This document shows, piece by piece, positions 17,604 to 46,349 of a stretch of 64,000 nt of DNA (the first letter of the stretch is position 1; the number at the start of each line of letters is the position of its first letter). This DNA is from an uncultured Gemmatimonadaceae bacterium (lineage in GTDB: Bacteria > Gemmatimonadota > Gemmatimonadetes > Gemmatimonadales > Gemmatimonadaceae). The notes below the pieces were generated by a model that saw nothing but the letters and a program-made list of their open reading frames with translations, did no database searches and was not told where the DNA came from. The stretch covers positions 1,440,001-1,504,000 of the forward strand of contig CAWFQK010000004.1 in the NCBI GenBank assembly GCA_963817955.1. Reading direction: 5' to 3'. A program made the position numbers and the translations under genes.

Positions 17604-17606
17604 GCC

Positions 17607-21357: not shown

Positions 21358-21507
21358 CTGTGTTCGGGCACCGAGCCGACTGGAGACGCGCGAGGGGGGC
21401 GCGATACTGATTCCACACACAGGCGTGTGGGGCAGTTGATGAACCGGCTTGGAACGGTCTGCGCGAGATCCGTGAGACCGATTCCCTGAATCTTGGGAGA
21501 GAGATAT

Positions 21508-22962
21508 ATGTCACGCCGTATTACTCGAGTCGCGCAATTCGGCGCACTCCTCGCTGCGTCGGTCGCGATCGCCGCATGCGTGAATGACAATGTGGTATAT
21601 CGCGACCGGGCGCTGACCGTATCGGCACCACCCGCGGGGGCTGGCTTCGTCGGCTACACCGACACGGCGACCAAGCAGACCGCCTGTGGCAATTGTCACG
21701 TCGAGCAGCAAGCGAAGTGGGCGACCACGAAGCACGCCAGCGCGTGGGCAGACCTGCAGGCCAGCGGCCATTCGAGCAGTGCCTGCGAATCTTGCCATGC
21801 AGTGAGTAACCTGGGCAATGGAGTCGCCGACTCGAACGTCGCGTACGCCGCCACGAAGGACACTCGGTATACCGACGTTCAGTGCGAGAACTGCCACGGT
21901 CCTGGCCAGCAACACGTATCGACTCCGGCTATCACAAACCGGCCGCTCGCGTCGATCCAGGTGGACACGGGGACGAAGGACATCAACGGCTGCGGCCAGT
22001 GCCACACTGGTACGCACGAGCCGTTCGTGGACGAATGGAAGCAGACGTTCGCGCAGGGACACGCGCACCTCGAAGCGCACGCGCTCACGAGCACCGATCC
22101 CACGTGCGTGACCTGTCACACCGGTCAGGGCGCGCTCCTCAAGTTCAACGTCAACACTGCGTATAAGGAGAAGGATCAGATCACGACGAACCCGGTGGCG
22201 ATCACCTGCGCCGTGTGTCACGATCCGCACGCAGCGACAGTCGGCAAACAGCTGCGCTTCGCCATTGACACTCCCGATCCGACGCGGAATCTGTGCATGC
22301 AGTGCCACAATCGCGATTCGGGCCCGAATCCAACCTCATCGCGTGGACCGATGACTCCGGAGACGGCGACGTTGCTCGGTACCGCCGGCTGGTGGCCGCC
22401 GAACCTCACGCTTGTCGACACGTCCGCCATTCTCGCGACGCACGGCTCGAGCTCGAACACCAGATTGTGCGCTACGTGCCACGTGGTCAGAACTGCGGTC
22501 AACGATCCGAAGACTGGCAGCTTCGTATTCCAGGCGACCGGACACAACTTTGCCGCAATTCCCTGCTTGGACGCGAACGGCAAGCCGACGACTGGTGACT
22601 GTGCCATCTCCCAGCGAACCTTCACGGCGTGTGCCGGCAGCGGTTGCCATGCATCGGACGTCGTCGGCCGGTCGCTGTATATCACCGACAGCCTACGCAT
22701 CGCGGCGCTCGAGACGACGCTGAGCGGCCAACTGGGCAAGGCTCCGGCGAGTTCGCTTAACTACACGAGCACCACGCTCACAACGGCTAAGGGTGCGACA
22801 TGGAATCTGCAGGTCGCACAGAAACCAGGCGCATGGATCCACAATCCATTCCTGATTGAGGCGCTCCTCACGGCCTCGATCAAGCAGATGACGCTGGACT
22901 ACGGGATCGCACCGAGCACCAGCATCTCACTCGACAACATTCTGCGTCGGCGGATTCGGTAA
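21508..22962 (+). CDS. Lipoprotein multiheme cytochrome c (8 CxxCH + 1 CX4CH)
   Basis: Lipobox IAAC. Motifs CGNCH, CESCH, CENCH, CGQCH, CVTCH, CAVCH, CMQCH, CATCH and CAGSGCH. C-terminal helical region with WIHNP. ATG 21508 after GGAGA. Confidence 0.92.
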   Translation: MSRRITRVAQFGALLAASVAIAACVNDNVVYRDRALTVSAPPAGAGFVGYTDTATKQTACGNCHVEQQAKWATTKHASAWADLQASGHSSSACESCHAVSNLGNGVADSNVAYAATKDTRYTDVQCENCHGPGQQHVSTPAITNRPLASIQVDTGTKDINGCGQCHTGTHEPFVDEWKQTFAQGHAHLEAHALTSTDPTCVTCHTGQGALLKFNVNTAYKEKDQITTNPVAITCAVCHDPHAATVGKQLRFAIDTPDPTRNLCMQCHNRDSGPNPTSSRGPMTPETATLLGTAGWWPPNLTLVDTSAILATHGSSSNTRLCATCHVVRTAVNDPKTGSFVFQATGHNFAAIPCLDANGKPTTGDCAISQRTFTACAGSGCHASDVVGRSLYITDSLRIAALETTLSGQLGKAPASSLNYTSTTLTTAKGATWNLQVAQKPGAWIHNPFLIEALLTASIKQMTLDYGIAPSTSISLDNILRRRIR

Positions 22963-23037: not shown

Positions 23038-23350
23038 AGAGGACCGTTGGATGGCATACGCCGTTCGCGACAACCCCAGCCCGTGTGTGTCCGTCCGATG
23101 CCGATGGCCACCGTCCGTGATCCCGCACACGCCGCACAGAGTTCTCCGATGACGTCGCGCACCCACACGGTGTTATGTACATCTGCGAATATGGCGGGCG
23201 CTACTCTGGCGCCCACGCGCGACGGTCCCGCAGCCATTACAAGGCGACCGCCATCAGCGCGTTCCCTTTGCACCTGGCGGTCAGGTGATCGTGACACGAT
23301 ATATTGCGCGGGCACGCTCGATAGGCGCTGATCTTTGGGCCGCCTCGGCG

Positions 23351-24718
23351 ATGCTGGCATTCATCTTCGCGCTGCTCGCGGCGGCCGCGCCATTGTGGGC
23401 GCAGGGGCCGCGGCTGGTAGCATCACGCGGCGGCGTGCAGTGCCAGAAGTGCCACGCCAACCATGAGTTTCTGGTGGGCAAAGCAAGAACGGAGCGAGGC
23501 GACTCGGCGCTGTATGTGCCAGACACGCTCCTGCGCGACTCGCGCCATGCAAAACTCAGTTGCGCCGACTGCCACCCTGGCTATGACAAAGGGTATCCGC
23601 ACAACGCGACTGTCGTGGCCGTGCCCTGTCAAAGCTGCCACGAGAAGGAAGGCCTGGCATGGGCACGCTCGATCCATGCGCCGAACGCCAAGACTGTCGG
23701 CGACGCTCCGACGTGCGTGAGTTGCCACACGCAGCACCACGTGCTCGGCGTCGAGGACCCTCGCTCGCCCACGTACGCGCTGAACGTGGCCAAGACGTGC
23801 GGAAAGTGCCACAGTGACCGCCGAATCATCGGCACGTACTTCACGAAGGCGAAGGATGCGCAGGCGCGAACGGCAGTGGCGGAGTACTACAAGACGGTTC
23901 ATGGCATAGCGAGCACCAAGTCCGGCCTGGTGGTATCTGCGACGTGCAACGACTGTCATGACGCACATCTCATCCTTCCGCCCGATTCGTCCGAGTCCAC
24001 CATCAATCGCGCGCACGTGGCGGCAACGTGCGGCGCGTGCCACGCCGGTGTGCTCGCAACCTTCGACTCGTCTTCGCATGGGCGGGCGTTCGCCTCGGGC
24101 AAGAAGACCAACACCGGTCACGCGGCGCCGGTGTGCATCGACTGCCACGCTGGACACAAGATCGTGGCCGCTCGCGACTCGGTGTGGTTTCGGGGCGTAG
24201 TGGCCGAGTGCGGCTCATGTCACGAACGACTGACCAAGACTTACTTCGAGACATACCACGGCCAGGTGACTGAGCTTGGCTTTGGGCTCACGGCCAAGTG
24301 CAGTGATTGCCATACCGCGCACTCAATGCTCCCACCCACCGATCCACGGTCGTCGGTGAACGCGGCCAACCTCGTAGCGACGTGCAGCAAGTGCCACGCG
24401 GGCGCGAATGCCAAGTTCGTGCAGTACATGCCGCACGGCGATCCACAGAATCGCGCGAAGAACCCCGGGCTGTTCTGGGTCTGGTTGTTCATGACGTCGC
24501 TCCTGGTGGGAGTATTCTCGTTCTTCGGCCTCCACACATTCCTGTGGCTGATGCGCCTGACATTGGATCGGCTGCACGGGGGCGGTGCGGCCAAGCCTCC
24601 GGTAGCAGAGCCCGTGACGGAGAGTGGTGAGGAGCATGCCGGTGTTCGCGCACCAGAAACAACAATCGCCGGCACGAGGCGCGAGCCTATCGGGCCCGGA
24701 ACTCGGGAGAAGCAATGA
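23351..24718 (+). CDS. 11-heme periplasmic cytochrome c with C-terminal TM (CbcL-like c domain)
   Basis: Signal peptide APLWA-Q, 11 CxxCH, end CSKCHAGANAKFVQYMPH...FMTSLLVGVFSFFGLHTFLW resembles the CbcL junction. Start may be GTG 23285. Confidence 0.9.
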   Translation: MLAFIFALLAAAAPLWAQGPRLVASRGGVQCQKCHANHEFLVGKARTERGDSALYVPDTLLRDSRHAKLSCADCHPGYDKGYPHNATVVAVPCQSCHEKEGLAWARSIHAPNAKTVGDAPTCVSCHTQHHVLGVEDPRSPTYALNVAKTCGKCHSDRRIIGTYFTKAKDAQARTAVAEYYKTVHGIASTKSGLVVSATCNDCHDAHLILPPDSSESTINRAHVAATCGACHAGVLATFDSSSHGRAFASGKKTNTGHAAPVCIDCHAGHKIVAARDSVWFRGVVAECGSCHERLTKTYFETYHGQVTELGFGLTAKCSDCHTAHSMLPPTDPRSSVNAANLVATCSKCHAGANAKFVQYMPHGDPQNRAKNPGLFWVWLFMTSLLVGVFSFFGLHTFLWLMRLTLDRLHGGGAAKPPVAEPVTESGEEHAGVRAPETTIAGTRREPIGPGTREKQ

Positions 24719-25626
24719 GCAACGAGCCGTTCGTTACGGCGGCGACGGCGATTCCCGTCTCCGTGAGAGGTACCGAGGCCAAACCACTGGCTGTATCCGA
24801 CCAGGGCGCTGGGCCGTACATCCGCCGCTTCGGAGCGGTGGAGCGTACGACGCATGCGCTCGTGATGGTCTCGTTCTTCGGCCTCGTAATCACGGGCGTG
24901 CCCCTGCGCTTCGCATCTGCGCCCTGGGCCGTACCGCTCATGCAGTTCCTGGGGGGCGCAGCCGCAGCAGCGGTTCTGCACCGGTTTTGCGCCGTGATCA
25001 CGTTCGGTTACTTCGGGCTGCATCTGGGCATGGTCGTCAAGAATTTCATGCGCGCCGAGAGCAAGTTGTCGATCTTCTGGGGCCCTCGCTCAATGGTGCC
25101 GCAGCCGAAGGACATTCGAGACGTCATCGGCATGTTCCGCTGGTTCATCCGCGGCGGAGTCCGTCCGAAGTTCGACCGCTACAGTTACATGGAAAAGTTC
25201 GACTATTGGGCCGTGTTCTGGGGTGTCGGAATCATCGGCGGTTCAGGCCTGCTGCTCTGGTTCCCGACATTCTTCTCGCATGTTCTGCCCGGGTGGGCGT
25301 TCAACGTTGCGACGATCGTTCACGGCGACGAAGCACTGCTCGCGCTTGGCTTCATCTTCACGATCCATTTCTTCAACGTTCACTTCCGACCCGAGAAATT
25401 CCCGATCGACCTGGTGATCTTTACCGGCCGCGCACGGGCGGAGTACTTCGAGGAAGAGCATCCGCTGGAATACGAGCGAGAACTGCACTCCGGCCGGTTG
25501 GCCGCATTGCAGACATCGGCCCCATCGCGATCGACGTACCTCTGGTCGATGGCGTTCGGATTCGCGGCCCTTGCGCTGGGCGTGTTCCTGGTTGGCCTGG
25601 TCATCTACGCAGTGTTGAGAGGATGA
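24715..25626 (+). CDS. Di-heme cytochrome b (FdnI/HydC-type; CbcL-like b domain)
   Basis: THALVMVSF, LHRFCA, YMEKFDYWAVFWG, IVHGDEALLALGFIFTIHFFNVHFRPEKFPID. Own RBS and ATGA overlap. Confidence 0.92.
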   Translation: MSNEPFVTAATAIPVSVRGTEAKPLAVSDQGAGPYIRRFGAVERTTHALVMVSFFGLVITGVPLRFASAPWAVPLMQFLGGAAAAAVLHRFCAVITFGYFGLHLGMVVKNFMRAESKLSIFWGPRSMVPQPKDIRDVIGMFRWFIRGGVRPKFDRYSYMEKFDYWAVFWGVGIIGGSGLLLWFPTFFSHVLPGWAFNVATIVHGDEALLALGFIFTIHFFNVHFRPEKFPIDLVIFTGRARAEYFEEEHPLEYERELHSGRLAALQTSAPSRSTYLWSMAFGFAALALGVFLVGLVIYAVLRG

Positions 25627-27095
25627 ACGCGTTTCGGCGCGGCGTAGCCGGCGGCCTGTTCGTCAGGCTCGCCCGCGCCGTTGCCGTCGGCTTGCTCGTT
25701 GGCATCAGCGGAAGCGCACTCACGAGCTGTTCTTCCAGCGCGCCGCCGCCTCGAGCGACGCGCGACACCACGGCGCATGTCGCAGTGTTGCAGGGCAGCG
25801 ACCGGGACGCGCCCACGCGTGTGCTGAGCACCGAATGTACGGATTGCCATCCGCATACGCATGACGCCGTGCTCGGCCGCGGCCCGTCAGCATCAGCACG
25901 GTGTGGCGCGTGCCACGCGTCCGTCCACGACACGATCCAGGCGCTGTACGCTGGCCTGACGCGCCGCGCCGCAGTGCGGCCCGATCCCATGTTCGTGGCG
26001 CGCGTTCAGTGCGCCGAGTGCCATTCTGATACGACGCTGGCCATGCGTGCCGGCGCCGCGCGACTGGCAGCCGTCGATCGCGCGTGTACGAGCTGTCACG
26101 GCCCCAAGTTCGTGGGCATGCTCCCGCGATGGAGCACGGGAATGCAGTGGCGTACCCGCGCCGTATCGGAATACGTGAATCGTGCTGCGGCCGACCCGCG
26201 GCTCACCACGGCCCCATCTGCCCGCGCACGCATCCAGGCTGCGAAACAGACAGTGATCCTGGTGACGACCGCCGGCGCTCTGCACAACGTGCGCGGTGCC
26301 GATGCCCTGCTCCGTAGCGCACTCGATAGCGCAGCGGCCGCGTACACCGGCCCCGGCCTGGCCGTGCCGGAGCGTCCGACGCTCGGTCCCGATCCCGCAC
26401 GCGTCTCGTGTGTCGGGTGCCACTATGGCATAGAGGGCGCTCGCGATTCTGTGTTCGGTCAGCCCTTCGATCACAGTGCGCATGTGTTGCGTGGCAACGT
26501 GGCATGCAATGCATGCCATAGCGCTGTCGACTATATCGTGCCCGGCAAGCACGAGGTGGACAAACGACACGGCAGGACGATGGTCACGCCTGCGTCGTGC
26601 AACGCATGCCACCACAATGCGACGTCCGCCGTGGCGTGCAGCACGTGTCACGCGGGCGATGCGCGGCTCGCACGCGCAATCCGCGTGGCAATGCCGCTGC
26701 GCCTCCGCCCGCCGAACGCGCCGACGTCTCGCGACGTGGCGTTCGAGCATCGTGACCATGCGAAGGTAGAGTGCGCGAGCTGCCATACCGCGCGCACGGC
26801 GGTGCGCACCACCGCGGCGTGCGCGACCTGTCATCAGACCCATCATGTCGCGGTAGCGCAGTGCATGAAGTGCCATGGGTCGGACATGCACGCGGCGCAC
26901 AAGGCTGCGGACCACCTGGCGTGCACCAATTGCCACGCCCGCGAGACCCTGGCACTGCTCACCCCCGACCGCAGCTTCTGCGTGAGCTGCCACGCGGATC
27001 GCGCCGCACACAAGGGCGGCCGCGAGTGCTCGGCGTGTCACATGCAAAGCACGCCGTCAGAGCTGCGCAAGAGAATTCTCAGCGGAACGCGCTGA
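25623..27095 (+). CDS. Lipoprotein 14-heme cytochrome c
   Basis: ATG 25623 overlaps the cytochrome b stop. Lipobox LTSC, 14 CxxCH, internal helical segment with GALHN. Confidence 0.92.
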   Translation: MNAFRRGVAGGLFVRLARAVAVGLLVGISGSALTSCSSSAPPPRATRDTTAHVAVLQGSDRDAPTRVLSTECTDCHPHTHDAVLGRGPSASARCGACHASVHDTIQALYAGLTRRAAVRPDPMFVARVQCAECHSDTTLAMRAGAARLAAVDRACTSCHGPKFVGMLPRWSTGMQWRTRAVSEYVNRAAADPRLTTAPSARARIQAAKQTVILVTTAGALHNVRGADALLRSALDSAAAAYTGPGLAVPERPTLGPDPARVSCVGCHYGIEGARDSVFGQPFDHSAHVLRGNVACNACHSAVDYIVPGKHEVDKRHGRTMVTPASCNACHHNATSAVACSTCHAGDARLARAIRVAMPLRLRPPNAPTSRDVAFEHRDHAKVECASCHTARTAVRTTAACATCHQTHHVAVAQCMKCHGSDMHAAHKAADHLACTNCHARETLALLTPDRSFCVSCHADRAAHKGGRECSACHMQSTPSELRKRILSGTR

Positions 27096-27105: not shown

Positions 27106-28899
27106 ATGGGACTATTCTCCAAGGATCTCGTTCTCCTGCATCCGCCGTCAGTCTACGACTTCCGGCGGAACGGCACGTTGTTCGGCCCAATCAGCGACGT
27201 CATTCCATCCACGCCGGTGTTCGAGATGTATCCGATGGGTTTCACCACCATCGCCGCGCATCTCGAGAACGCGGGCTTCAACGTGGAGATCGTCAACATC
27301 GCGTACCGGATGTTGTCGGACGCCACATACGACGCCGAAGCTGCGATTGCCGCCTTGCATCCGCGCATCTTCGGCATTGATCTCCACTGGCTGCCGCACG
27401 CGCATGGCGCGCTGGAACTGGCGCGCATCGTCAAGAAGCACCACCCTGGGACGCCCGTCGTCATGGGCGGCCTGTCCGCGTCGTACTTCCACGAGGAGCT
27501 CGTCCGGTATCCCTGGGTCGATTACGTACTGCGCGGCGACTCGACTGAGGAGCCGATCCTCCAGCTGATGCAGGCGCTGCAAAGCGGCGACCCACCGACG
27601 GCGGTGCCGAACCTCACGTGGATCGACGCGCGCGGAGAGGTGGTGGTGAACCCGCTCACCCACGTGCCGGACGACATCGACGACATCGCCATCCCGAATT
27701 ACCGGTACGCGATTCGGTCGGTCTTCAAGTACGCGAGTCTGGCGAACGTCATTCCCTTCGTCGATTGGATGAGCTATCCGATAACCGGGCTCCTGACGTC
27801 GCGAGGGTGTTCGTTGGACTGCTCCATCTGTGGCGGGTCGCGGAGCGCGTACCGCACCATGTGCAACCGCCGGCGGCCGGCATTCCGCTCGCCGGAAGCC
27901 CTGATCCGCGACATCCGGCAGATCCGGGAATTCAGCGACGCGCCGATCATCCTGCTGAACGATATCCGCCATGGCGGCCGGGCCTATAGCGAACGTTTCC
28001 TCGATTTGCTGGAGCGCGAGCGCGCGCCGAACGAGATCATCTTCGAGTTGTTCTGGCCGGCGGACGACGCGTTCTTCGAGCGTGTCGCCCGAGCGTCGCC
28101 GCGGTTCAGCCTCGAGATGACGCCGGAGAGTCCAGACGAGGGGCTGCGACGCATCAACGGCAAGTTTGCGTGCACGAACGCGGAGATCGAGGACACCGTG
28201 GCGGCTGCGCTTCGCCATGGCGTGAATCGGATTGACATCTTCTTCATGGTCGGTATCCCCCGCCAGACCTATCTGCAGGCGGTCGGCGCCGTCGACTACT
28301 GCCGCGAGCTACTCGAGAAGTTCGCCGGTGACCACCGCCTGGCATTCTTCGTAGCTCCTCTCGGCCCGTTCCTCGATCCGGCGAGCCGGGCATTCGAGCA
28401 TCCAGAACAGTTCGGCTATCGACTCATTCACCGCACGCTCGAAGAGCATAGACGCGCGCTCACATCGCCGAGCTGGAAATACCTGCTGAACTATGAGATG
28501 GAGACGATGAGCCGTGACGACATCGTGGATGCGACGTACGAGTCGGCGCTACGGCTTGCTCGGCTCAAGCGCGACTACGGCTATATGGACGACGCCACGT
28601 GCGCCGAGCTCTCGGCGCGCATCGAGGCATCGCGCCACGCAATCGCCGAGGTGGACTGCATTCTCGCTCTGCCAGAAGGCGAGAACCGCGAGGATCGCCT
28701 CGCAGCCGTGCGCGCACGTTTCGCGGACTTGCCCGCGCAGACGGTGGCCGTGAAGCAGGAGCTCTTGCGCTGGCCAACCCCCGGGGGGTTCGCCAGCTCG
28801 GTGCGGCTGGCGCAGCTGGGCGCGCGGCTCATGCGCACAGAAGTCTATCTGTTCTCGAAGCGTGTGCGGCGGCTGTGGGCCGCACACGCCGATCCGTGA
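27106..28899 (+). CDS. Cobalamin-binding radical SAM protein (TIGR04190/Ta0216-like from recall)
   Basis: N-terminus DLVLLHPPSVYDFR...FEMYPMG, B12-domain GIDLHWLPHAHG / VMGGLSAS, CxxxCxxC in RGCSLDCSIC. Confidence 0.88.
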   Translation: MGLFSKDLVLLHPPSVYDFRRNGTLFGPISDVIPSTPVFEMYPMGFTTIAAHLENAGFNVEIVNIAYRMLSDATYDAEAAIAALHPRIFGIDLHWLPHAHGALELARIVKKHHPGTPVVMGGLSASYFHEELVRYPWVDYVLRGDSTEEPILQLMQALQSGDPPTAVPNLTWIDARGEVVVNPLTHVPDDIDDIAIPNYRYAIRSVFKYASLANVIPFVDWMSYPITGLLTSRGCSLDCSICGGSRSAYRTMCNRRRPAFRSPEALIRDIRQIREFSDAPIILLNDIRHGGRAYSERFLDLLERERAPNEIIFELFWPADDAFFERVARASPRFSLEMTPESPDEGLRRINGKFACTNAEIEDTVAAALRHGVNRIDIFFMVGIPRQTYLQAVGAVDYCRELLEKFAGDHRLAFFVAPLGPFLDPASRAFEHPEQFGYRLIHRTLEEHRRALTSPSWKYLLNYEMETMSRDDIVDATYESALRLARLKRDYGYMDDATCAELSARIEASRHAIAEVDCILALPEGENREDRLAAVRARFADLPAQTVAVKQELLRWPTPGGFASSVRLAQLGARLMRTEVYLFSKRVRRLWAAHADP

Positions 28900-28903
28900 A
28901 CCT

Positions 28904-30916
28904 CTAACCTCCTACATGCGCCACCACTGCCGCCTTTGCGTTCCCCATCGGCGGCACTTTGTGGCACGACTCGCACGCACGACCAGGCTTGTGGTTCGTC
29001 TGCGCTACGTGGCACGTCGTGCACACCTGCCGCGACCAGTGATCCACGGCTGGCACTGACTTGTGACACTGAACGCACGCGACGTGATCGGTCGCCTTGT
29101 GCTTTGCCAGTGAGCCGCCACGATGACAGCTGAGGCATGCCGCCTGGGGCTGGTGGTGCTGCGCATGGCAGTTGTCGCAGTTCAGCGCACGCGCGCTCAT
29201 GGCCGGCGCCGTGTGGCACGCGCTGCATGCGACCTTGGCGGCGAGATGGGAGGCGTGCGTGAAGTCACCAGCGGGCGCGTGCAGCGTGTCGACCGGAACG
29301 CCCCCTGGGCCGGCATGGCACTGCGCACAGTTGCGCGCCTGCGCCTGCACGGACGGATGGTGGCACGCGTCGCAACTCGCCGCTGACTTGATCGTCGTGC
29401 CGCCGTGATCGGCGAATGACGTGTGACAGCCACTGCACTGGAGCCCGGCACGCAACACATGCTGCGAGTGATCGAACGACCGGCCGTCCAAGATGCCGCG
29501 CTGCTGCTCCACGCCCATGTGGCACTGCAGACATTCGTTATCGCTCACCGGCGGCCCCAGATTCACCACCGGCATGCGATACGACAGGTGCGTGTCGTCC
29601 GCCGCTTGGCGCACGAGCTCGAGCGAGCTCCGCAGCAACCCGTCGGCGTAGCTGATATTGTGCACGCCTTTGCCCGCGCGCACGAGCGCAATGTTCTCCG
29701 CCGCCATTCCGAGCAGGCTGTCGGCGACGGCGCGCTGGTTCAACGGCAACGCCACCGCCGCAGCGCGCGCTTGCTGCATGACAGGCTCCACCAGATTCAG
29801 CTTCCGATCCATCGCGCGCTGCCAGCTCGGAAGCATGTTTGCGTAGCGGACGCCGTGGCAAGACAGACAGGCGGACTCGTTCGCGACCTGCACCGTGCCG
29901 TGACCGGGCTTTCGAGACGCGTCGTTGTGGCATCCCACGCAGGAGACGCGGGCCTTGTACATCGAGCTCGGCCCCTTCTGCGTGAGATGTCCGCCGGTCC
30001 CGGCGTAGAGCTTCTGCTGCGCGACATGCGTGTTCTGATGGCAGCTCTTGCAGTCCAGCTCCACCGTGGTCGAGACGGAAATGATCCGGTGATCGATCCC
30101 GGTGTGGCATTGGACACACGCGATGTTCTCCTGCCCCACGTGCACTTTGTGCAGCATGGGCGAGTCCGTGATGCGCGCCAGTCGAGCGGGTTCGTTGTGG
30201 CAGGTGACACACCGGGCCGCATCCACGTTACCGGTGCCCTGGGTGACTTCGTTGTGGCATGACAGGCAGTCGATCCGATCCTTGACGTACTGCGGATGAT
30301 CGACGACGAAGCCCTCTTTGGAGTTGACCCGCGGCGGCGCGGGATGGCAGCCGGTGCAGGTGGCAAGCGGCTGGCCGTTGGGACGCCCCTTGAAGTGGCA
30401 GAGGACACAGGTGTTCTCGGTGACGGCAATGTGCGAGCCCTGCACGATCTGCGAGTGACAACTGGTGCAGTGCAGCTCAATGCCGCGACGCACCTGCCCG
30501 AGGTGACGTGTATGGTCAAAGCGTACTCCTTTGTAATCCACCTGCCCCTCGATGAGCCGCGTCGAGTGGCAGCCCGAACGGAGGCACGCCGCGTCATCCA
30601 TCTTCGCCCAGGGGCGAGTGTTGGCAGTACCAGTGAAGTACTTCACCACCATGTTCGCGGCCTGCACCTTGGTCATCGCCTCGGCTTTGATGCCCGGGGC
30701 GATGTGGCACTTGATACAGGCCACATCGCGATGCGTCGACTTCGTCCACGAGTCATGGTACGGCTTCATGATGTGGCAGCTACCGCAGAACCACGGTTGG
30801 CTGGACACCTGAACGAACGCGGTTGTGCTGACAGCAAGCAGGATGATGCCGAGGATGACTACAGGAACCGCGATGCGCGCAGCTCGCGACACCCGCCTAC
30901 GGGCTGTGGGCGACAT
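28904..30916 (-). CDS. Membrane-anchored 22-heme cytochrome c with NapC/NrfH-like N-terminus
   Basis: N-terminal TM, first motif CGSCHIM (CxxCHxM), 21 CxxCH plus CLRSGCH, internal GKGVHN helical segment. Confidence 0.92.
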   Translation of the reverse strand: MSPTARRRVSRAARIAVPVVILGIILLAVSTTAFVQVSSQPWFCGSCHIMKPYHDSWTKSTHRDVACIKCHIAPGIKAEAMTKVQAANMVVKYFTGTANTRPWAKMDDAACLRSGCHSTRLIEGQVDYKGVRFDHTRHLGQVRRGIELHCTSCHSQIVQGSHIAVTENTCVLCHFKGRPNGQPLATCTGCHPAPPRVNSKEGFVVDHPQYVKDRIDCLSCHNEVTQGTGNVDAARCVTCHNEPARLARITDSPMLHKVHVGQENIACVQCHTGIDHRIISVSTTVELDCKSCHQNTHVAQQKLYAGTGGHLTQKGPSSMYKARVSCVGCHNDASRKPGHGTVQVANESACLSCHGVRYANMLPSWQRAMDRKLNLVEPVMQQARAAAVALPLNQRAVADSLLGMAAENIALVRAGKGVHNISYADGLLRSSLELVRQAADDTHLSYRMPVVNLGPPVSDNECLQCHMGVEQQRGILDGRSFDHSQHVLRAGLQCSGCHTSFADHGGTTIKSAASCDACHHPSVQAQARNCAQCHAGPGGVPVDTLHAPAGDFTHASHLAAKVACSACHTAPAMSARALNCDNCHAQHHQPQAACLSCHRGGSLAKHKATDHVACVQCHKSVPAVDHWSRQVCTTCHVAQTNHKPGRACESCHKVPPMGNAKAAVVAHVGG

Positions 30917-30919: not shown

Positions 30920-32218
30920 TTATGGCTCCTCGTTCCCGGCGCCGCGGCGAAGCGCTCGCAGCGTGAGCCACGCCAGCGCGACCGCCGCCAACGAGAGGAA
31001 CCATACGGGGAGCAGCAGCAGCTTGTGCTCCAACAGCACCTCCTCGCTTGCGGCCGACATGCGATCGAGCTCGATCGATGCCGCGCTCACGCGACTCTCC
31101 TGGTTCTCAACGCGCTCGAGATCGAGCCCGTGCTGCACCTGTGCGATCTGTAGGTAGTCAGTGAGTGCCGACTGGTAACGGAAGCGCGCGTCGCTCGTGC
31201 GCTGCCCCGAAACCGCAAGACGGTCCACGGCGCGCTCGGCCGACCGCAGGTCCGAGGTCGCCTGCATCATGCGACGCTGCAGGTCTACACCGACCTGGTG
31301 TAGCTTCGTGTCGCGAGCGTGGCACCGGTCGCACATCGCGGAGATGCTGTCGTCAGCAATACGCTGCGTGCCGTGGTTCCCGTGGCACGCCAGGCACCCT
31401 TGGATCCGCCCCGCGCGCGTGGCGGGCCCGTGCGGCCCAGCATTGAATGCCTGTGCCACGAGCTGGTGGCAACTGCCGCAGACGCTCGACACCTCGGTGC
31501 GCGTGGGCGGCAGCGCCGAATGCGCACCGTGGCAAGCTACGCACGTTGGGGCGGCAAAGTCCCGCTTCTCGAACAATGTCTTGCCGTGCGCGCTGTTGCG
31601 GAACTGGTCGAGCTGGTCGGTACGCAAGTTGTACTTCTGCATCAGCCGCGTGTTGGCATGGCAGTGCCCGCACGTGGTTGGGATGTTGGTCGGATACACG
31701 CGACTGCGCGCATCGTACGGCGGATAGATGATGTGCGTGCCATGACAATCGGTGCACGTTGGTGCATCGACGTTGTTCCCCGCGAACAGAAGCTGCCCGT
31801 GGCGGCTGGTGCGGAACTCCGCGAGCTGGCCGGTGGGCAACCCATACTCGCGCATCCTATTTGGATCAGAGTGGCATGAGCCGCACAGCCGTGCAACAGC
31901 TACCTTGTTCAGCGCGCCGGTGAAGCCGTTGCCGTGCGCCGCGGGAAGGAGGCGTGCAGAAGGATCGCCGCCGTGGCAGTCGACACAGCGCACGCCGTGC
32001 TCAGAGTGCACGCCGACGTCGGCGGCCTCCCGTTGGGCCGCGTGACAGACCAGGCAATTATTGCCCGCGTTCGCCTCGGGCGTCTGCCAAACCGTAGTCG
32101 GTGCCGGGACCGCCGCCGCTGTGTGCATGGCCTGAGGCGCGGCTTGTGCCGGCACGAGGCTCGCGGCAAGCACGAGAGCGGTAGCGCCAAGGAGGCGAGT
32201 GATCGTGGCGCGCATCAT
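30920..32218 (-). CDS. 9-heme cytochrome c with C-terminal membrane anchor
   Basis: ATG 32218 overlaps the cytochrome b stop. Signal peptide, 9 CxxCH, coiled coil and C-terminal TM. Confidence 0.92.
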   Translation of the reverse strand: MMRATITRLLGATALVLAASLVPAQAAPQAMHTAAAVPAPTTVWQTPEANAGNNCLVCHAAQREAADVGVHSEHGVRCVDCHGGDPSARLLPAAHGNGFTGALNKVAVARLCGSCHSDPNRMREYGLPTGQLAEFRTSRHGQLLFAGNNVDAPTCTDCHGTHIIYPPYDARSRVYPTNIPTTCGHCHANTRLMQKYNLRTDQLDQFRNSAHGKTLFEKRDFAAPTCVACHGAHSALPPTRTEVSSVCGSCHQLVAQAFNAGPHGPATRAGRIQGCLACHGNHGTQRIADDSISAMCDRCHARDTKLHQVGVDLQRRMMQATSDLRSAERAVDRLAVSGQRTSDARFRYQSALTDYLQIAQVQHGLDLERVENQESRVSAASIELDRMSAASEEVLLEHKLLLLPVWFLSLAAVALAWLTLRALRRGAGNEEP

Positions 32219-33450
32219 CGTGACGTTGGAGCGGCAACGACCGTGTCGACGGGCGCCGCCGGCGTATATACCGGAGTGAGCTCGCTGGCAGTGGAGACGG
32301 AGCGCAGATGCCACCCCGCGGCCCACGCCAACGCGAAGCCGAAGAAGAACGCGAAACCAAAACCCGCAACGAGCGGATGGCGTCGCAGTTGCCGGTCAGG
32401 AGCACGATCGAACACGGGAAGAACCACGAGCGCGACACCCAGCAGTACGAACACGCCGAAGCCCCATGCGCCGAGATAATGAAGCAGCGCGCGTGAGACG
32501 TCGGCAACGAACCACGTGGCATGCAACGCCGTGGGCGGATGGGCCGGGTCGGCCGGAGGAGCGATTTCGCGCGGCCACAGCACGGCAGCCGTGACTACGA
32601 CGGCGACGACGAGCACGCCCACGCTCATGGAGCGCAAGAGGTGGTGCGGGAAGAATGGCACGCCCTCGCGATCACGATCTGCCGCTGGTGTCACGCCATC
32701 GCGCACCACAGGCGCGAGGCCGTGCTTGCGCAGCAGCGTGAAGTGCAGCATCAGGAGCCCGAGCGCGGCCCACGGCAGCAGAATCACGTGGATCGCGAAG
32801 AACCGGCTCAGCGTAGCGCCCGAAACCAGCGGATCGCCGCGAAGCAGTTCGGCCAGCCAGCCACCAATGAGCGGCACGCGACTGATGACATCCACACCCT
32901 GCGTGGTGGTCCAGTACGCCCACTGGTCCCACGGCAGCAGATAACCGGTGGCGCCAAATCCCAATATGACGAGTAGCAGCAGCAGTCCGACGAGCCAGTT
33001 CGTCTCGCGCGGTGGCTTGTACGCGCGGCCGAAGAACACGCGCGCCATGTGCGCCAGCACGGCCACGACGATCAGGTTCGCACTCCACCGATGCAGATCG
33101 CGCATCAGCCATCCGAACGAAATGCCGGAGACGATGTGCTGAATGCTCTGGTACGCCTCTTCGGCCGATGGCCGGTAGTAGAACGAGAGGAGCACCCCCG
33201 TGGCGACGAGAATGATGAACAGCAGGTACGTGACTCCGCCGAACGCCTGGCGCCAGCCGACGTGGCGCGGAACCCGGTTGGCCAAGGCTTTACGAAATGC
33301 CTCGCCAATTGGTAGTTGGGTGTCGATGGGGCCATAGAGCAGGCCCACGAAGCGCAGCAGCCCGAGCAGGCTTGCATCGGTGCTCGCCTTGATGTCGGGC
33401 CAAAGACGCTGAGTCCAAATCCGAGCGATGCCGCTTTCGGAGTCTGCCAT
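32215..33450 (-). CDS. Cytochrome b of Rieske/cytb family (fused b6+IV type), PEWY motif degenerate
   Basis: RDLHRWSAN...HMARVFF, RETNWLVG, GYLLPWDQ, RFFAIH-x14-H. The expected PEWY position reads ATWF. Confidence 0.92.
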   Translation of the reverse strand: MADSESGIARIWTQRLWPDIKASTDASLLGLLRFVGLLYGPIDTQLPIGEAFRKALANRVPRHVGWRQAFGGVTYLLFIILVATGVLLSFYYRPSAEEAYQSIQHIVSGISFGWLMRDLHRWSANLIVVAVLAHMARVFFGRAYKPPRETNWLVGLLLLLVILGFGATGYLLPWDQWAYWTTTQGVDVISRVPLIGGWLAELLRGDPLVSGATLSRFFAIHVILLPWAALGLLMLHFTLLRKHGLAPVVRDGVTPAADRDREGVPFFPHHLLRSMSVGVLVVAVVVTAAVLWPREIAPPADPAHPPTALHATWFVADVSRALLHYLGAWGFGVFVLLGVALVVLPVFDRAPDRQLRRHPLVAGFGFAFFFGFALAWAAGWHLRSVSTASELTPVYTPAAPVDTVVAAPTSR

Positions 33451-33451
33451 G

Positions 33452-33922
33452 TCAGGGCCTCCCTACGTAGACGGCGCCATCGCGCACGAACGTGGAGTAA
33501 CGCTTCAGCGGCACCGTCGTGAGCCCGCGTACCACGTTGCCGTGCAGATCGTAGACGAGGTAGCCGCAGGCGGAGGCTACGCGCATCGACGTGGCATCCC
33601 AGTGCAAGATGCAGCCGTCGTTCGGCGCCGTGCCCTGGAGCGCCGTGTAGGTGGTCGAGTCCGCGCGAACCACAAGAATCACCTGGTCCCCCCAGCGAAC
33701 AATGCGGCTGCTTCCTACGGGCAGGCTCGTCTCAGGTGCCACGCGGAACGCGGGCTGGAGTTCGGGGAGCTGGAGCTGTTCGGGCGGCAGCAGGTAGACG
33801 AAGACGGCGAGGAGCGCGCCCATCAACATGAGTGAGAGAACTCCGCCGAGCAGGTATTCACCAAAGCCCGGCGTCCATGTCCGGGACGCAGGGATCGGCT
33901 CGGTTGTGTCAGGCATCACCAC
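33452..33922 (-). CDS. Rieske-fold protein lacking [2Fe-2S] ligands
   Basis: TM anchor, then YTALQGTAPNDGCILHWD...VASACGYLVYDLHGNVVRG...PL, aligning without gaps to Rieske boxes CxHxGC and CPCHG. Directly upstream of cytochrome b. GGAGG RBS. Confidence 0.85.
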   Translation of the reverse strand: MVMPDTTEPIPASRTWTPGFGEYLLGGVLSLMLMGALLAVFVYLLPPEQLQLPELQPAFRVAPETSLPVGSSRIVRWGDQVILVVRADSTTYTALQGTAPNDGCILHWDATSMRVASACGYLVYDLHGNVVRGLTTVPLKRYSTFVRDGAVYVGRP

Positions 33923-34065
33923 TGGTCAGCCTCCGTTCTCGCTGATGTGCAACTGCGCTGCTTCCGCATAGCCAATCGTGCGATCGCTGGTGGTAGGTCG
34001 CTTGCGCGACGACATGACCAACCCGGCGACTGCTGTAACTCAGCGGTTTCCGGCCGCGTAGTCTG

Positions 34066-34124
34066 TCAGCGAAAACCAGAATCGCTGTCGGGAGTTAGCG
34101 TGCGGGTGGGAAGGCATGCTCCTA
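34066..34124. promoter_or_regulatory. Three 22-bp-phased putative regulator boxes upstream of the pseudo-Rieske operon
   Basis: TCAGC-GAAAA-CCAGA (34066), TCGGG half-site (34088), GAAGG-CATGC-TCCTA (34110). Confidence 0.5.
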
Positions 34125-34167
34125 CGTCATGCGCGAGAGCACATCCAACGGAAGATCATCGTGAGCG

Positions 34168-35751
34168 TTACTTCGAGAGCGGATCGGTGATGTGGCAGGT
34201 CAGGCACATGATCTTGTTACGGGCTGACATCCGACTCGCGTCGAAATTCTGTCCGTGCGGGTTCACCTTCAACCCGGTGCTTGCATGACAGCGCAGGCAA
34301 TCACGCTGCTGGTGACAGGTGGTGCAGCCGGTCATTCCTTGCCGCGCTGCTTGACCATGCTGTAGGAGCCAGAGCGGCTGCCCGGTGTGCACGGCACCTG
34401 TACGTGCTCCGCTCACGGTAATATTCGTCTTTTCATGGCACGAACGACAGAACGTCTCGGTGCGATGACAGGACGTACAGTTCTGGTCTTGCCCATACGC
34501 CACCGCCGCGTGCCGAGCAACGAAGTCGAGCGCATGATAGCGCTTGGAACCAGACCCCTCGTGACAGGTGGTACATTGGCGCTGCTCGTGACATCCCAGA
34601 CAGTCTAGCCGGCCGCTCGCTGCCGTCGACTTGTGCTGCGTCGCGAATCCCGCGGGATGCACTTTCGAGCCGGACCCCTCGTGACACGTCGCACATTGGC
34701 GCTGCTCGTGACATCCCAGGCAATCGACACGACCGCTCGCTGCCACCGACTTGTGCTGCATCGCGAATCCCAGAGGATGCGCCTTCACCAAAATCGTATC
34801 CCCGTGCGTCGCGCCGCGCGCGGGTAACCGAGCAAACGTCAGTCCGGTGTCAACACGCGCGACTCGCAACACGACACCCGGCGCCACTCCCGGCGCCGGC
34901 ATCGGAAGCCGTGCGATGACTGCGGCCGCGTTTGACCCTCTGTGACAGGACTGACAGCTCGGCTGCGTGTGGCAGTTGGCACAGCCCTCCGCTTGCTTTG
35001 ACGCAATGGTTCCGTGGTCGGCAGACCATGTCTCGCTCCGATGATTCACCGGGGTTGAATACGAGGCAGCTTTCCCCTTCATCAACTGAGCCACCCGCGA
35101 GTCGCTTCCCAACGCGCCGATCGCGGGAACGCGCGCCGCGTTCGGATGGCAGCGCGCGCAGCTCTCGCGAGCATGACACGTGGCGCAGCGCTCGACATCC
35201 GCGCTGGTTCGCGGCGCGTGCGCTGAGGCAAAATCCGCGCGTCCGTGCGATGTGGGTTTCGGGAAGGTCGCGATCGCGCTCGCGGGCAATGCGCGCGCCT
35301 CTGTTAGCGGGACATGGCACGTCTTGCATATCGCACTCTCTGCAAGATGTTCCGGTGCCTCATGGCAAGAGAGGCATACAGTGGGCGCTGCGCGCCGCAC
35401 CTGCATCCAACCCGCCTGCTTGTTTTCGGCATGACAACTCTGACACACTGCCGACGTTCCCTTCGCCTGGGGGTCCCGCGGATGCTCAACGTGTGCAAAC
35501 CGCAGGTTCGTCGGCTGCGGGGTGGCGCCCGACCATGTCGTGACCGCCACATCCCGGCCGTTATGGCACTGGGCGCACGTACTAGGCGCGGGCATCGCCG
35601 TGGTCGCGTCACCCGAGAGAATGCCCGCGTGGCACCCCGCGCAGTCCGGAAAGAGCTTCGCATGTTGCGCGTGCGGAAATCCCGATGACCGCTGCGCGTG
35701 CAAGGCCCCTGTCGACAGAAGCGCGATACCCAGCCAAGCGCCGATTCTCAT
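34168..35751 (-). CDS. 18-heme periplasmic cytochrome c (porin partner)
   Basis: Signal peptide ALHA-Q, 18 CxxCH, six paired CxxCH-x4/5-CxxCH modules. 4-bp overlap with the porin gene. Confidence 0.93.
   Translation of the reverse strand: MRIGAWLGIALLSTGALHAQRSSGFPHAQHAKLFPDCAGCHAGILSGDATTAMPAPSTCAQCHNGRDVAVTTWSGATPQPTNLRFAHVEHPRDPQAKGTSAVCQSCHAENKQAGWMQVRRAAPTVCLSCHEAPEHLAESAICKTCHVPLTEARALPASAIATFPKPTSHGRADFASAHAPRTSADVERCATCHARESCARCHPNAARVPAIGALGSDSRVAQLMKGKAASYSTPVNHRSETWSADHGTIASKQAEGCANCHTQPSCQSCHRGSNAAAVIARLPMPAPGVAPGVVLRVARVDTGLTFARLPARGATHGDTILVKAHPLGFAMQHKSVAASGRVDCLGCHEQRQCATCHEGSGSKVHPAGFATQHKSTAASGRLDCLGCHEQRQCTTCHEGSGSKRYHALDFVARHAAVAYGQDQNCTSCHRTETFCRSCHEKTNITVSGARTGAVHTGQPLWLLQHGQAARQGMTGCTTCHQQRDCLRCHASTGLKVNPHGQNFDASRMSARNKIMCLTCHITDPLSK
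34541..34780 (-). repeat. 120-bp intragenic tandem duplication (two-heme module)
   Basis: HPLGFAMQHKSVAASGRVDCLGCHEQRQCATCHEGSGSKV versus HPAGFATQHKSTAASGRLDCLGCHEQRQCTTCHEGSGSKR. The repeat is visible at DNA level with period 120. Confidence 0.93.
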
Positions 35752-37214
35752 TGGATCCTCAATGCGCCGGGGCTACCAAGCGTCCACTCGAGCCGCACCG
35801 TGCCGCGCCGTTGATTCCAATTCACTAACTGTGGCGCGTCGCTGCCTGTGTGATGATACAGCAGCATATCGGCTACGAGGCGCAAATCGGGGAACAGGCG
35901 CACCGCAGCCTCTCCGCCTCCACCGACCACCCGGCCCGAACCGATCTGGAATTCATAGATGTTCTGAAAGGCCAATCCGTGGAGTGCGAGCGACAGGCCA
36001 TCGCTTGGCGCCCAACGCAGCGCAACGTCTTCATCGCTGGTCGACGCGCCGAAATCGATATCGGCGTTGTAGCTCCCCTGGACCGACCATGCGTTGGACG
36101 CCCGGAAGGAGCCGGTTGCGCCAACGCGCCAGCCGCTCGCGCGGAGCGGCAGGAACGCGACGCCACTCTGCGTGTCATCGTACGACCGTCGCCCGCCCGA
36201 TGCACCCAGGCTCACGCGAGCATCGCTGCTCGCCCAATCCAGGTTGCCGGAGACTTCTTTGTAGCCCACGGGAGCAAATGCGCCCCAGATCGTCCAGAGA
36301 TCGAAGTAGGGCGCGTAATGGCGTGCCTCGATCCGCGCCGTCGCCGATCGCGGCAGCACGAAGCGGAGCGCCAGAGAGAGATCGTTGAAGGTGCCGGTCG
36401 CCAGGTCGCGCGTGAGCTCGCCCGACAACGTGCTCTTCCCGGCATGCAGTTCGCCATCGGCGGCGACCCGCTCGGAATAGAGTCCGGCGCGATCTCGACG
36501 GATCTCGCGTTGGTACTGCACGCGGAACGCGCCGAGTGCATTGGGACGAAGCTGCGCCGTTGCCCCGATCACGTACGCACCATCGGTCGGCGGAAGATCT
36601 TCGACTGGCGCGAGCACACTAGCGTCGAGCGGTCGATTGAGCCCAGACACGAGGGTGCCACCACCATACACTTCGGCAGATACGCTACTCATCGGCCGCA
36701 GGAGCACCGATCCACCATCGAAGTTGAAGACGCCGAGCGACGAGGTGATCCACTGGCGGCCAAGCCTCGCACGCGCTCGGGAGCGGTCCATCTCGATGTA
36801 GGCATCGAGCGCATCGAACGTCTGCGTCGCTTGTGGCCACAGGTCGCGCGCATCGCCCGCTGCTCCGCGCGCCCGCAGTTGCGCGTGCACGCTGATTCCC
36901 TCACCGAAGCCCCAGCCCGTGACGTCAAGATCCTGGGTCATGGCGACGAGGGCGTTCCTGGACGCTGACCGAAGGAACGTGCAGTACTGGTTCAGCGCAT
37001 CGCATCGCGCGAGTATGCCGGACGTCGTGCGGCGATATACGCCGTACGCCGAATCCGTCGATGCATAGGCAATGCTATCGAGCACGAGCGGCTGCAGCTC
37101 GATGTATTGAGCCGAGCTGGCCCCCCTGATGACGACGCCCTGCGCCGCCGCCCTGCTCGCCGTCACGGCAACGAGGGCGGCCGTGAGGGCGATTCCTGCA
37201 ATATGGCGCCTCAT
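35748..37214 (-). CDS. Putative outer-membrane beta-barrel porin of a porin-cytochrome pair
   Basis: Signal peptide, many amphipathic strands with aromatic girdle (RARLGRQWI, FRVQYQRE, WSVQGSY, TVRLEWTL). Translationally coupled to the 18-heme cytochrome. Confidence 0.78.
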   Translation of the reverse strand: MRRHIAGIALTAALVAVTASRAAAQGVVIRGASSAQYIELQPLVLDSIAYASTDSAYGVYRRTTSGILARCDALNQYCTFLRSASRNALVAMTQDLDVTGWGFGEGISVHAQLRARGAAGDARDLWPQATQTFDALDAYIEMDRSRARARLGRQWITSSLGVFNFDGGSVLLRPMSSVSAEVYGGGTLVSGLNRPLDASVLAPVEDLPPTDGAYVIGATAQLRPNALGAFRVQYQREIRRDRAGLYSERVAADGELHAGKSTLSGELTRDLATGTFNDLSLALRFVLPRSATARIEARHYAPYFDLWTIWGAFAPVGYKEVSGNLDWASSDARVSLGASGGRRSYDDTQSGVAFLPLRASGWRVGATGSFRASNAWSVQGSYNADIDFGASTSDEDVALRWAPSDGLSLALHGLAFQNIYEFQIGSGRVVGGGGEAAVRLFPDLRLVADMLLYHHTGSDAPQLVNWNQRRGTVRLEWTLGSPGALRIQ

Positions 37215-38710: not shown

Positions 38711-38867
38711 CGGCAGTGTCCGAAAACATGCCTTCGCAAATCAGTCTTATGCGTCTACTGGGCGGTGCCCATCGCAACAATTGTACACGGCACGCGTGAA
38801 CGCCGTAGCCAGCCTCGCACACCCTTTAGGTGGTGCGGCAATCCACGCCCAGTCAGGAGTCCGTTCC

Positions 38868-40058: not shown

Positions 40059-40060
40059 CC

Positions 40061-43054: not shown

Positions 43055-43307
43055 GATGGGTGTCGCGATGGAGATCTGCCGCATTGCCGAAGCACGCGTC
43101 GGCACCGAATCCGCGGCGTTCGTCACGCGGTTGGCGGTAACGATAGGCGACGAGGCGGGCGTCGAGCCGTCAAGCCTCGAGTTCTGTCTCGACGCGCTTC
43201 TGGCACAGCCGCCGTTCGGCGGCGCCACGGCGCAGATCATCTCAACGACGGGTGACACTCTTCGTTTGGACTACTTGGAGATCGACGATGACCGTGAGAG
43301 TGATTGA
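43047..43307 (+). CDS. hypA: Nickel metallochaperone HypA, short form without zinc domain
   Basis: MHE Ni motif, IGDEAGVEPSSLEF, terminal GDTLRLDYLEI. Only 86 aa, no CxxC pairs. Confidence 0.88.
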   Translation: MHEMGVAMEICRIAEARVGTESAAFVTRLAVTIGDEAGVEPSSLEFCLDALLAQPPFGGATAQIISTTGDTLRLDYLEIDDDRESD

Positions 43308-46322: not shown

Positions 46323-46349
46323 TCGCATCTACCGACCAGGAGGCGTCAC

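Follow-up and report, generated by a model that had tools for sequence, protein, structure and literature searches.

A conserved Rieske/cytochrome b operon of Gemmatimonadota that lacks the cluster ligands and the PEWY motif and adjoins multiheme cytochromes c

A stretch of 64,000 nucleotides from an uncultured Gemmatimonadaceae bacterium (assembly GCA_963817955.1, contig CAWFQK010000004.1, positions 1,440,001 to 1,504,000; the whole stretch is called the window below) encodes a Rieske-fold protein devoid of iron-sulfur cluster ligands and, after a gap of one base, a cytochrome b that lacks the PEWY motif of the quinol oxidation (Qo) site. Genes for a 9-heme and then a 21-heme cytochrome c follow, the start of the 9-heme gene overlapping the stop of the cytochrome b gene (ATGA). 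At the level of sequence it is shown that the family to which this operon belongs has no cluster site and no PEWY, retains four heme histidines and a fixed operon, and is under purifying selection. Judged from the ligand positions, bifurcated quinol oxidation in its known form is precluded by the missing cluster. The complex probably links membrane quinones to a long heme-protein chain without the textbook Q cycle. The reading favored here, to which we assign a probability of roughly 45%, is a non-bifurcating link in which electrons would move between a quinone site on the n side, the two b hemes and a chain of c hemes, with the Rieske protein in a structural role.

33452..33922, minus strand: cluster-less Rieske-fold subunit, 156 amino acids, one transmembrane (TM) helix at residues 20-44 (profile, AlphaFold model, structure match)
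33611..33628, minus strand: former box 1, APNDGC, residues 99-104; family consensus APTDGC (sequence and family alignment)
33560..33574, minus strand: former box 2, SACGY, residues 117-121; family consensus SPCSY (sequence and family alignment)
33515..33526, minus strand: GLTT, residues 133-136, where the GPxP loop is expected (sequence and alignment)
32215..33450, minus strand: long cytochrome b, 411 amino acids, with a b6-like N half and a subunit-IV-like C half in one chain (alignments)
32509..32520, minus strand: ATWF, residues 311-314, at the PEWY site; family S/T/A-T/S-W-I/V (alignment)
32629..32730, minus strand: n-side (Qi-like) segment R241 to S274, with R241 and R273 kept, the Asp lost at 274 and a new H270
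30920..32218, minus strand: 9-heme cytochrome c with an N-terminal signal-like segment, a helical stalk and a C-terminal TM anchor
28904..30916, minus strand: 21-heme cytochrome c with a NapC/NirT (NrfH-like) membrane-anchored head

The window Rieske protein by itself gives no Rieske match in a Pfam scan, and family and structure searches were needed to place it. A profile of 92 family members matches PetC of Chlorobaculum (8HN2) at E 1.5e-12, and 79 of the 92 members match Rieske_2 of Pfam at E <= 0.1. The AlphaFold model (mean predicted local distance difference test, pLDDT, 88.5) superimposes on 8HN2 with a root-mean-square deviation of 1.3 Å across 96 columns, which upholds the Rieske fold proposed in an earlier note on this DNA. 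In the profile alignment TAPTDGC stands against ICTHLGC, and SPCS against CPCH, of PetC; from this register the four cluster-ligand positions are replaced and the two disulfide cysteines are kept, with 14 residues between C104 and C119. No twin-arginine (RR) motif precedes the TM helix, whose limits are those of the model. The earlier note had read all of these motifs correctly (both boxes, the Cys spacing, GLTT, the lack of RR), and likewise the four histidines, GYLLPWDQ and ATWF of the cytochrome b. No promoter- or terminator-like site was found in 33400-34400.

A protein search recovered 154 homologs among 274 candidates, and family counts out of 120 refer to the best 120 of these 154. Two features that go with membership in Rieske/cytochrome b complexes are present, the TM-anchored Rieske-fold subunit and the tip Cys pair, which occurs at spacing 14 in 120/120 homologs and is predicted to form a disulfide; two others are absent. 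No homolog (0/120) has Cys or His at the cluster-ligand positions, that is, the two-Cys/two-His [2Fe-2S] ligand set is missing, and none (0/120) has a twin-arginine (Tat) motif ahead of the TM helix, compared with 59 of 68 full-length four-ligand relatives. Just two cysteines occur in 118/120 members, and a His one position beyond the box-2 ligand site in 5/120. The D102 position is acidic in 119/120, S117 is kept in 119/120, and the TT loop is conserved. With the cluster site missing throughout the family, the claim of the earlier note that classical bifurcation is absent appears sound.

The cytochrome b alignment comprised 120 database proteins and 61 genome-derived family rows (overlapping sets), compared with 31 other cytochromes b of the same loci; rows of <300 amino acids, truncated or frameshifted copies such as L034, L040, L041 and L043, were left out. 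All four heme histidines (H120, H134, H221 and H236 in the window protein, which also carries GYLLPWDQ) are found in 181/181 rows (120/120 database, 61/61 genome-derived), and the flanking glycines are likewise invariant (181/181). At the PEWY site, where ATWF of the window aligns with the motif of bc1 and of b6f subunit IV, P or E occurs at its positions in 0/181 family rows; STWI (70 rows) and STWV (45) are found among other forms, only the Trp being kept, and neither P[ED]W[YF] nor a known Pro-containing Qo variant occurs (0/181). The 31 other cytochromes b have PEWY (27), PEWF (1) or APWY (3). The earlier note had held PEWY to be required for bifurcation, which overstates the case: Glu272 mutants keep activity and natural PEWY variants exist, according to the treatment by Kao and Hunte (PMC4122944). 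Since PEWY is not strictly required, it is the loss of the cluster, the other half of that claim, that stands as the decisive fact.

Further changed Qo positions are W177, T181, E/Q184, D317, S319 and R320. The glycine position of WGA is T181 in 165/181 family rows and A in 28/31 of the other cytochromes b; a bulkier residue there blocks quinone binding, as described in PMC7908018. Position 184 is E, Q or D in 178/181 rows, Arg stands at 320 or at 324 but never at both in 179/181, and Y170 is kept in 118/120 cytochromes b. On the n side, R241 (181/181) aligns with Arg207 of b6, described as part of the n-side proton path (PMC7908018). The new H270 is present in 111/120 database and 56/61 genome-derived rows, and R273 is kept. 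The b6-like N half is recognized at E 2.9e-54. A69 aligns with Cys35, the heme ci Cys, and the protein is a single 411-residue chain, so the marks of b6f with heme ci are absent. Metagenome contigs supplied the deepest branch of the family, 10 loci out of 135 stretches, and three of its rows reach the Qo site. There, VLWF (2 rows) or ALGL (1 row, the Trp gone too) replaces PEWY, and E184 and D317 are absent in 3/3, whereas the four heme His, R241, H270 and R273 are retained. Judging by this contrast, albeit one of three rows, the Qo side appears to drift and the n side to stay as it is. E184 and D317 were considered as a universal new catalytic set, and were rejected as such on account of their absence in the deepest branch.

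Two other departures among cytochromes b were observed in passing. The protein at L068:7416-8543 (genome G009) has PEWY and an intact Rieske partner, yet reads GRLLPW for GYLLPW and replaces the WGA glycine by Lys. In G049 and G296, long cytochromes b (L104, L105 and L085) read APWY and lie beside four-ligand Rieske proteins and 7-8-heme cytochromes.

The gene order is as constant as the motifs. In 48 genome loci, drawn from 78 candidate stretches, cytochrome b follows the Rieske gene in 48/48 (47 by label, plus L044), and the 9-heme and 21-heme genes come next in 43/43 loci of sufficient length. By title, 47 of the loci are Gemmatimonadota and one is Steroidobacteraceae. Among 301 Gemmatimonadota genomes sampled evenly, 31 carry the Rieske family at E <= 6.5e-53 (the next tier is at 1e-19), and in the same 31 the matching cytochrome b adjoins it at E <= 7.6e-177 (next tier 7e-86). 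No genome of the 301 has the cluster-less Rieske protein without its cytochrome b, or vice versa, and none has an intermediate with just one of the two losses. The coupling that the earlier note had anticipated, of ligand loss to the Tat and PEWY losses and to multiheme neighbors, is thus borne out over the family. In trees, the cytochromes b form one clade (28 of 61 rows, support 100/100) and the cluster-less Rieske proteins one clade (24 of 82 rows, support 100/99, with the bootstrap not settled). Because each gene forms a single clade, the co-loss is best seen as one inherited event and not as repeated independent losses; the order of the Rieske and cytochrome b losses is not readable from single-clade trees.

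Several sequences near this family are recorded here in their own right. The operon of L032 is in a metagenome-assembled genome titled Steroidobacteraceae, on a 7-kb contig of low coverage whose nearest copies are from Gemmatimonadales, either by mis-binning or by transfer. P0137, a single sequence on a 1-kb contig, has four Cys and neither His (CPRTGC / CPCD) and branches weakly beside the cluster-less clade; P0236, also a single sequence on a 1-kb contig, has no Cys at all. A separate Rieske lineage (P0139, P0143, P0144, P0150, P0170, P0216, P0225 and P0235), mostly of ~216 residues, is extended at the N terminus and has a longer box 1 whose His has been exchanged repeatedly (CSYTEEC, CTFMDNC, CTYAEDC); P0225 also has CPCC, and the lineage is a second case of ligand change. 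No longer fused Rieske forms were found in 7999 candidates of 369-2000 residues, a weak test that leaves 274-368 residues uncovered.

Selection on the operon was estimated as the ratio of nonsynonymous to synonymous rates (dN/dS) by Nei-Gojobori, using the loci plus the window and keeping pairs at dS 0.05-1.5. The median is 0.31 for the Rieske gene (maximum 0.73; 1163/1176 pairs), 0.27 for cytochrome b (938/946) and 0.34 for the 9-heme cytochrome as control (910/946). In the eight closest pairs the values are 0.08-0.23 and 0.05-0.33; the window Rieske gene and its closest locus differ by dN 0.20 and dS 1.04. Saturation of dS in GC-rich DNA probably inflates the medians. From these ratios both genes are judged to be under purifying selection, as the check proposed in the earlier note had called for, and decay is rejected since dN/dS is well below 1 and equal to that of the 9-heme control.

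A candidate for the starting point is found in other classes of the phylum. The operon of G009 has the same order as the cluster-less one: Rieske (CPHKGC...CPCH, with an RR motif), PEWY cytochrome b, and 9-heme and 20-heme cytochromes; that of G006 is similar, except that its cytochrome b frame is broken. These two operons differ from the window family in that four ligands and the RR motif are present, and in G009 PEWY as well. Their multihemes are the nearest homologs of those of the window (246-262 bits for the 9-heme and 425-446 bits for the NrfH-headed protein) and share indels and a C-terminal motif with the window family. Sequence likeness thus suggests that an intact operon of the G009 type is the ancestral state. 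The placement of G009 as sister by the cytochrome b tree was tried and set aside as unresolved, with a very long branch (3.4).

The association of the subunits was modeled with ESMFold2, using cytochrome b (12-388) and Rieske (16-156) with the 9-heme protein as partner and three controls; hemes, the dimer and the 21-heme subunit were left out. The complex scored 0.66 against 0.21 for the best control, three runs shared >= 90% of contacts, and the partner pLDDT was >= 81. The score mark was reached by 116/157 solved complexes and 2/215 mismatched pairs, counts that are only rough for a three-chain job. In the model, the 9-heme subunit binds both cytochrome b and the Rieske subunit: its TM anchor (~residues 395-423) packs on helix E of cytochrome b (268-298) and on the Rieske TM helix. 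The c1/f anchor presumably occupies this same site on helix E. The interface includes residues 102-105, 118-121 and 133-136 of the Rieske tip and also 9-heme residues 250-253 at heme 7, and the tip is inferred to touch the 9-heme protein near heme 7; the best-scoring listed residue pairs are TM contacts only. A structural role for the Rieske fold, as the earlier note had it, fits this predicted three-chain complex.

Three candidate signs of contact or of concerted change were rejected. The one-frame cytochrome b/9-heme fusion at L044 (1835-4174) is missing its final TM helix, still has the signal peptide, and may be a deletion or an assembly error; that of G258 has a frame that crosses a masked gap. 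The exchange of His and Met at position 95 in the 9-heme protein was discarded because, of 26 canonical-type copies, 12 have M, 8 have H, 2 have both and 4 have neither.

The favored reading envisions a four-subunit membrane complex (cluster-less Rieske, cytochrome b, and 9-heme and 21-heme cytochromes c) that would have descended from a normal Rieske/cytochrome b-multiheme complex and given up bifurcation at Qo. Cytochrome b would be a plain two-heme wire across the membrane, from the cytoplasmic (Qi) quinone site to the periplasmic c-heme chain, and the Rieske protein a disulfide-stabilized structural adaptor holding the 9-heme cytochrome. The Qi site would turn over, Qo would be dead, and a c heme would lie near heme bL; its likeliest place is the NrfH-like head that the 21-heme subunit has at the membrane surface. 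That head has an invariant CxxCHxM at heme 1 and an invariant K83 (both 59/59), and matches the NrfH model at E 2.6e-13, which is below the cut-off. Electrons might run inward, from a periplasmic donor to menaquinone with protons taken from the cytoplasm, building proton-motive force; coupled to quinol oxidation at the NrfH-like head, inward flow would make a redox loop. They might also run outward, with proton-motive force spent to push electrons to low-potential acceptors outside. We lean slightly to the inward or redox-loop form because it conserves energy.

A number of observations weigh against this reading. The ab loop and helix E are the only parts of cytochrome b that the 9-heme protein touches, via its stalk and TM anchor; the Qo segments 175-190 and 305-325 are outside the confident interface, and the three-chain model, built without hemes, shows no path for electrons between bL and a c heme. 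The direct wiring of b hemes to c hemes that the earlier note proposed goes beyond what the model depicts. The passing score itself may in part reflect likeness to the c1/f anchor of solved complexes. The NrfH-like head (CxxCHxM, K83) occurs in intact and degenerate operons alike and thus is no compensation for the loss. On the n side, the Qi Asp position is never D or E in 181 rows and the position of b6 Asp20 is K54, leaving no evident acidic proton donor, although Rhodobacter tolerates a Qi site in which just the Asp is lost (PMC5001787). New polar residues at Qo are conserved in the main clade (184, D317, Arg 320/324), for which a dead pocket would have no obvious need. Finally, a neighboring CbcL-like pair, present in 35-36 of 48 loci, could do the same job.

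Other explanations draw on some of these same points. The degenerate pair might be one part of an asymmetric dimer or supercomplex with a canonical pair, the canonical half being the working Qo and this half a second bH/Qi branch with a multiheme outlet. The earlier note had missed that the window genome has two intact Rieske/cytochrome b-c pairs (C2:950889-952959 and C4:814580-816731), and that a second cytochrome b lies within 25 kb on the same contig in 22 of the 31 carriers (elsewhere in 7, none in 2), 12 of the 22 having been read and showing a four-ligand Rieske and PEWY/PDWY; electron transfer from bL to bL between monomers is also known (PMC7908018). Linkage may, however, merely mirror a respiratory island. 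The canonical neighbors fall in other clades and have cytochromes c of their own, 7/31 genomes including that of the window carry the canonical pair unlinked, and in G269 and G191 (drafts, 93% and 96% complete) the degenerate cytochrome b is the only PF00033 match. From the gene content, partnership with a canonical complex is possible but would not be obligatory, and as the explanation of the family we think it unlikely. Hardly better placed is the idea that quinol is oxidized at the NrfH-like head, Rieske and cytochrome b just anchoring the multihemes. The heme-site motif and Lys of that head, the canonical acid lost at both cytochrome b quinone sites, modeled contacts that run through TM helices and stalk, and the deranged bc1 of Acidocella as precedent (PMC10715153) would all suit a mere scaffold. 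Such a scaffold need not have kept heme His and flanking Gly in 181/181 rows, where Acidocella lost the bH ligands, nor R241, H270 and R273 over the whole clade. The distal quinol-site Asp of NrfH, which we take to be D89, has no acidic counterpart in the head, where positions 89-90 are Q/M89 and V90.

Less probable still is a remodeled Qo at which quinol oxidation on the periplasmic side continues to bifurcate, with a c heme replacing Fe-S as first acceptor and E184, D317 and R320 catalytic. The conserved polar residues of the main clade, Y170, the Arg 320/324 swap and the modeled tip contact near heme 7 could be taken that way; the deepest branch does without E184 and D317, and in one member without even the Trp, the pocket is crowded by T181 and W177, the model has no confident c-heme contact at Qo, and known bifurcation needs a mobile cluster. 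That the Rieske tip holds another cofactor, a single metal ion at C104, C119 and D102 with a redox or gating role, is a long shot. The acidic D102, S117 and the TT loop are conserved as a site might be, but the Cys spacing is exactly that of the disulfide, only two Cys are available in 118/120, and loss of the Tat signal fits cofactor-free export. Simple decay of a redundant bc operon, for which the two intact pairs in the genome and the patchy distribution (31/301) might be cited, is scarcely credible: frames are open, identical substitutions recur over 28 genera-level matches in several families (a tally that includes weak matches), the family is an old single clade, and the dN/dS values largely refute it. 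Cutting across these accounts is a bolder form, doubtful though with a real chance of being right, of a working, energy-conserving bc-type complex without any iron-sulfur centre, in which c hemes replace the Rieske cluster, either by heme-based bifurcation at a rebuilt Qo or as a self-contained redox loop. In the latter variant, quinone would be reduced on the n side via the b hemes and quinol oxidized at the NrfH-like head, with a 30-heme wire to the cell surface.

Set beside known systems, the non-bifurcating link favored here has a precedent for each half, in the ligand-less Rieske of Acidocella and in S[A/G]WF cytochromes b. The published Acidocella case, which the earlier note had missed, is a deranged bc1 whose Rieske protein, within a bc operon, lacks three or four ligands and keeps the disulfide Cys (Degli Esposti et al. 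2023, PMC10715153). There, cytochrome b has lost the bH His and pairs with a normal cytochrome c1, and the authors consider the complex non-functional or structural (PMC10715153). The window family shares the ligand-less, disulfide-keeping Rieske in a bc operon; it differs in its invariant four His, its loss of PEWY and its multiheme partners in place of monoheme c1. The two are most likely convergent, Acidocella being of a different phylum and having a bc1-type complex. Geobacter Cbc6, or ExtMNOPQS (GSU2935-2930), has a Rieske protein, cytochrome b and 10-12-heme cytochromes near a porin gene (PMC2825233, PMC5877670) and, according to PMC13591261, is without known role. In the cytochromes b that Dibrova et al. 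2017 class as subfamily L, Gmet_0539 among them, the PEWY site reads S[A/G]WF, and the Gemmatimonadota leaf seen in their tree is a PEWY protein (PMC5600118). The Rieske-cytochrome b-multiheme cluster is alike in these, and STW[IV] of the family resembles S[A/G]WF. ExtP is the best NCBIfam match of the window cytochrome b (223 bits, cut-off 290); the ExtQ model gives 19 of 150 bits, and the multihemes match ExtM only weakly (24 bits). Unlike the window protein, most ExtP proteins are short, carry CLGG (heme ci) and go with subunit IV as a protein of its own, and ExtO is annotated as an Fe-S protein.

The b6f-type ('green') complexes, represented by PetC of Chlorobaculum tepidum (8HN2), have in common with the window family the Rieske fold, the b6-like N half, the four His, the Arg207 equivalent, the Rieske-cytochrome b-cytochrome c order and the c-subunit anchor at helix E (modeled for the window complex). 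They differ from it in having Fe-S ligands, Tat motif, PEWY and the heme ci Cys; the window family instead has a long fused cytochrome b and 30 c hemes in two dedicated subunits. CbcL, CbcBA, the FdnI/HydC-type diheme anchors and QrcABCD are functional analogues, as non-bifurcating links between menaquinone and periplasmic multihemes; their membrane subunits are unrelated, and nothing in them corresponds to a Rieske fold or to subunit IV. Acceptors of low potential are the ones served by CbcL and CbcBA (bioRxiv 10.1101/2021.04.15.440034, PMC13591261), and Qrc works electrogenically as a cytochrome c:menaquinone oxidoreductase. The window complex is built from Q-cycle parts and falls outside the Q-cycle group by its cluster ligands, Tat motif and Qo motif; PMC5317091 and PMC6295460 give broader context. 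Literature searches, which reached few subscription papers, found no paper on the cluster-less Rieske family.

The operon lies in an island of multiheme genes, with 81 c-heme motifs in six proteins (8, 11, 14, 21, 9 and 18).

6184-14596, minus strand: A/V-type ATPase operon, subunits D, B, A and I by Pfam, beside the ccm genes
15224-20688, plus strand: cytochrome c maturation genes CcmA, B, C and F with a thioredoxin-like protein, directly upstream of the multiheme cluster
21493..22962, plus strand: 8-heme cytochrome c, with a homolog in 28/48 related loci
23285..25626, plus strand: 11-heme cytochrome c and FdnI/HydC-type cytochrome b, CbcL-like by architecture
25623..27095, plus strand: 14-heme cytochrome c
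27106..28899, plus strand: B12-binding radical SAM protein, TIGR04190 above cut-off, in 18/48 related loci
34168..35751, minus strand: 18-heme cytochrome c, upstream neighbor
35748..37214, minus strand: 488-residue secreted protein, candidate outer-membrane beta-barrel (Atlas cluster likeness)
38781-48828, plus strand: [NiFe] hydrogenase operon with its own cytochrome b and hyp genes

The 11-heme cytochrome and its FdnI/HydC-type cytochrome b recur in 36 and 35 of the 48 related loci. The 18-heme cytochrome and the 488-residue putative barrel (34168-37214, minus strand) recur together in 16/48 and may be an undescribed porin-cytochrome conduit. The 488-residue protein has no Pfam or NCBIfam match; its nearest Pfam-bearing Atlas clusters are barrels at 0.92 with 162-166 shared features, which is only a lead. 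The TIGR04190 gene occurs in two divergent forms (about 42% and 62% identity), and its product is possibly a heme- or protein-modifying enzyme. The hydrogenase is not a fixed partner, since it is near only 3/48 related loci. The gene setting would fit anaerobic or extracellular electron transfer.

It is important to emphasize that the Rieske cluster has been regarded as the one part of bc complexes that cannot be spared. A whole lineage, found in about 1 in 10 of the Gemmatimonadota genomes searched, has retained this complex with its two b hemes and its Rieske scaffold and has lost the cluster, the export signal and PEWY. As far as sequences can tell, the family is real, conserved and surprising to a specialist in bioenergetics; the mechanism is a proposal. 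New here are the contrast of Qo and n side in the deep branch, the Arg 320/324 swap, the three-chain model, and two genomes (G269 and G191) without another cytochrome b. The family is a natural test of what cytochrome b is capable of without bifurcation. Dibrova et al. (PMC5600118) proposed that bc complexes grew from simple diheme anchors, and the window family would be that proposal run in reverse. Automatic annotations such as 'ubiquinol-cytochrome c reductase iron-sulfur subunit' and 'nitrite reductase small subunit' give a false account of the respiratory capacity of these bacteria, which are abundant and uncultured; the operon suggests a hitherto undescribed point at the inner membrane where electrons enter the extracellular transfer route.

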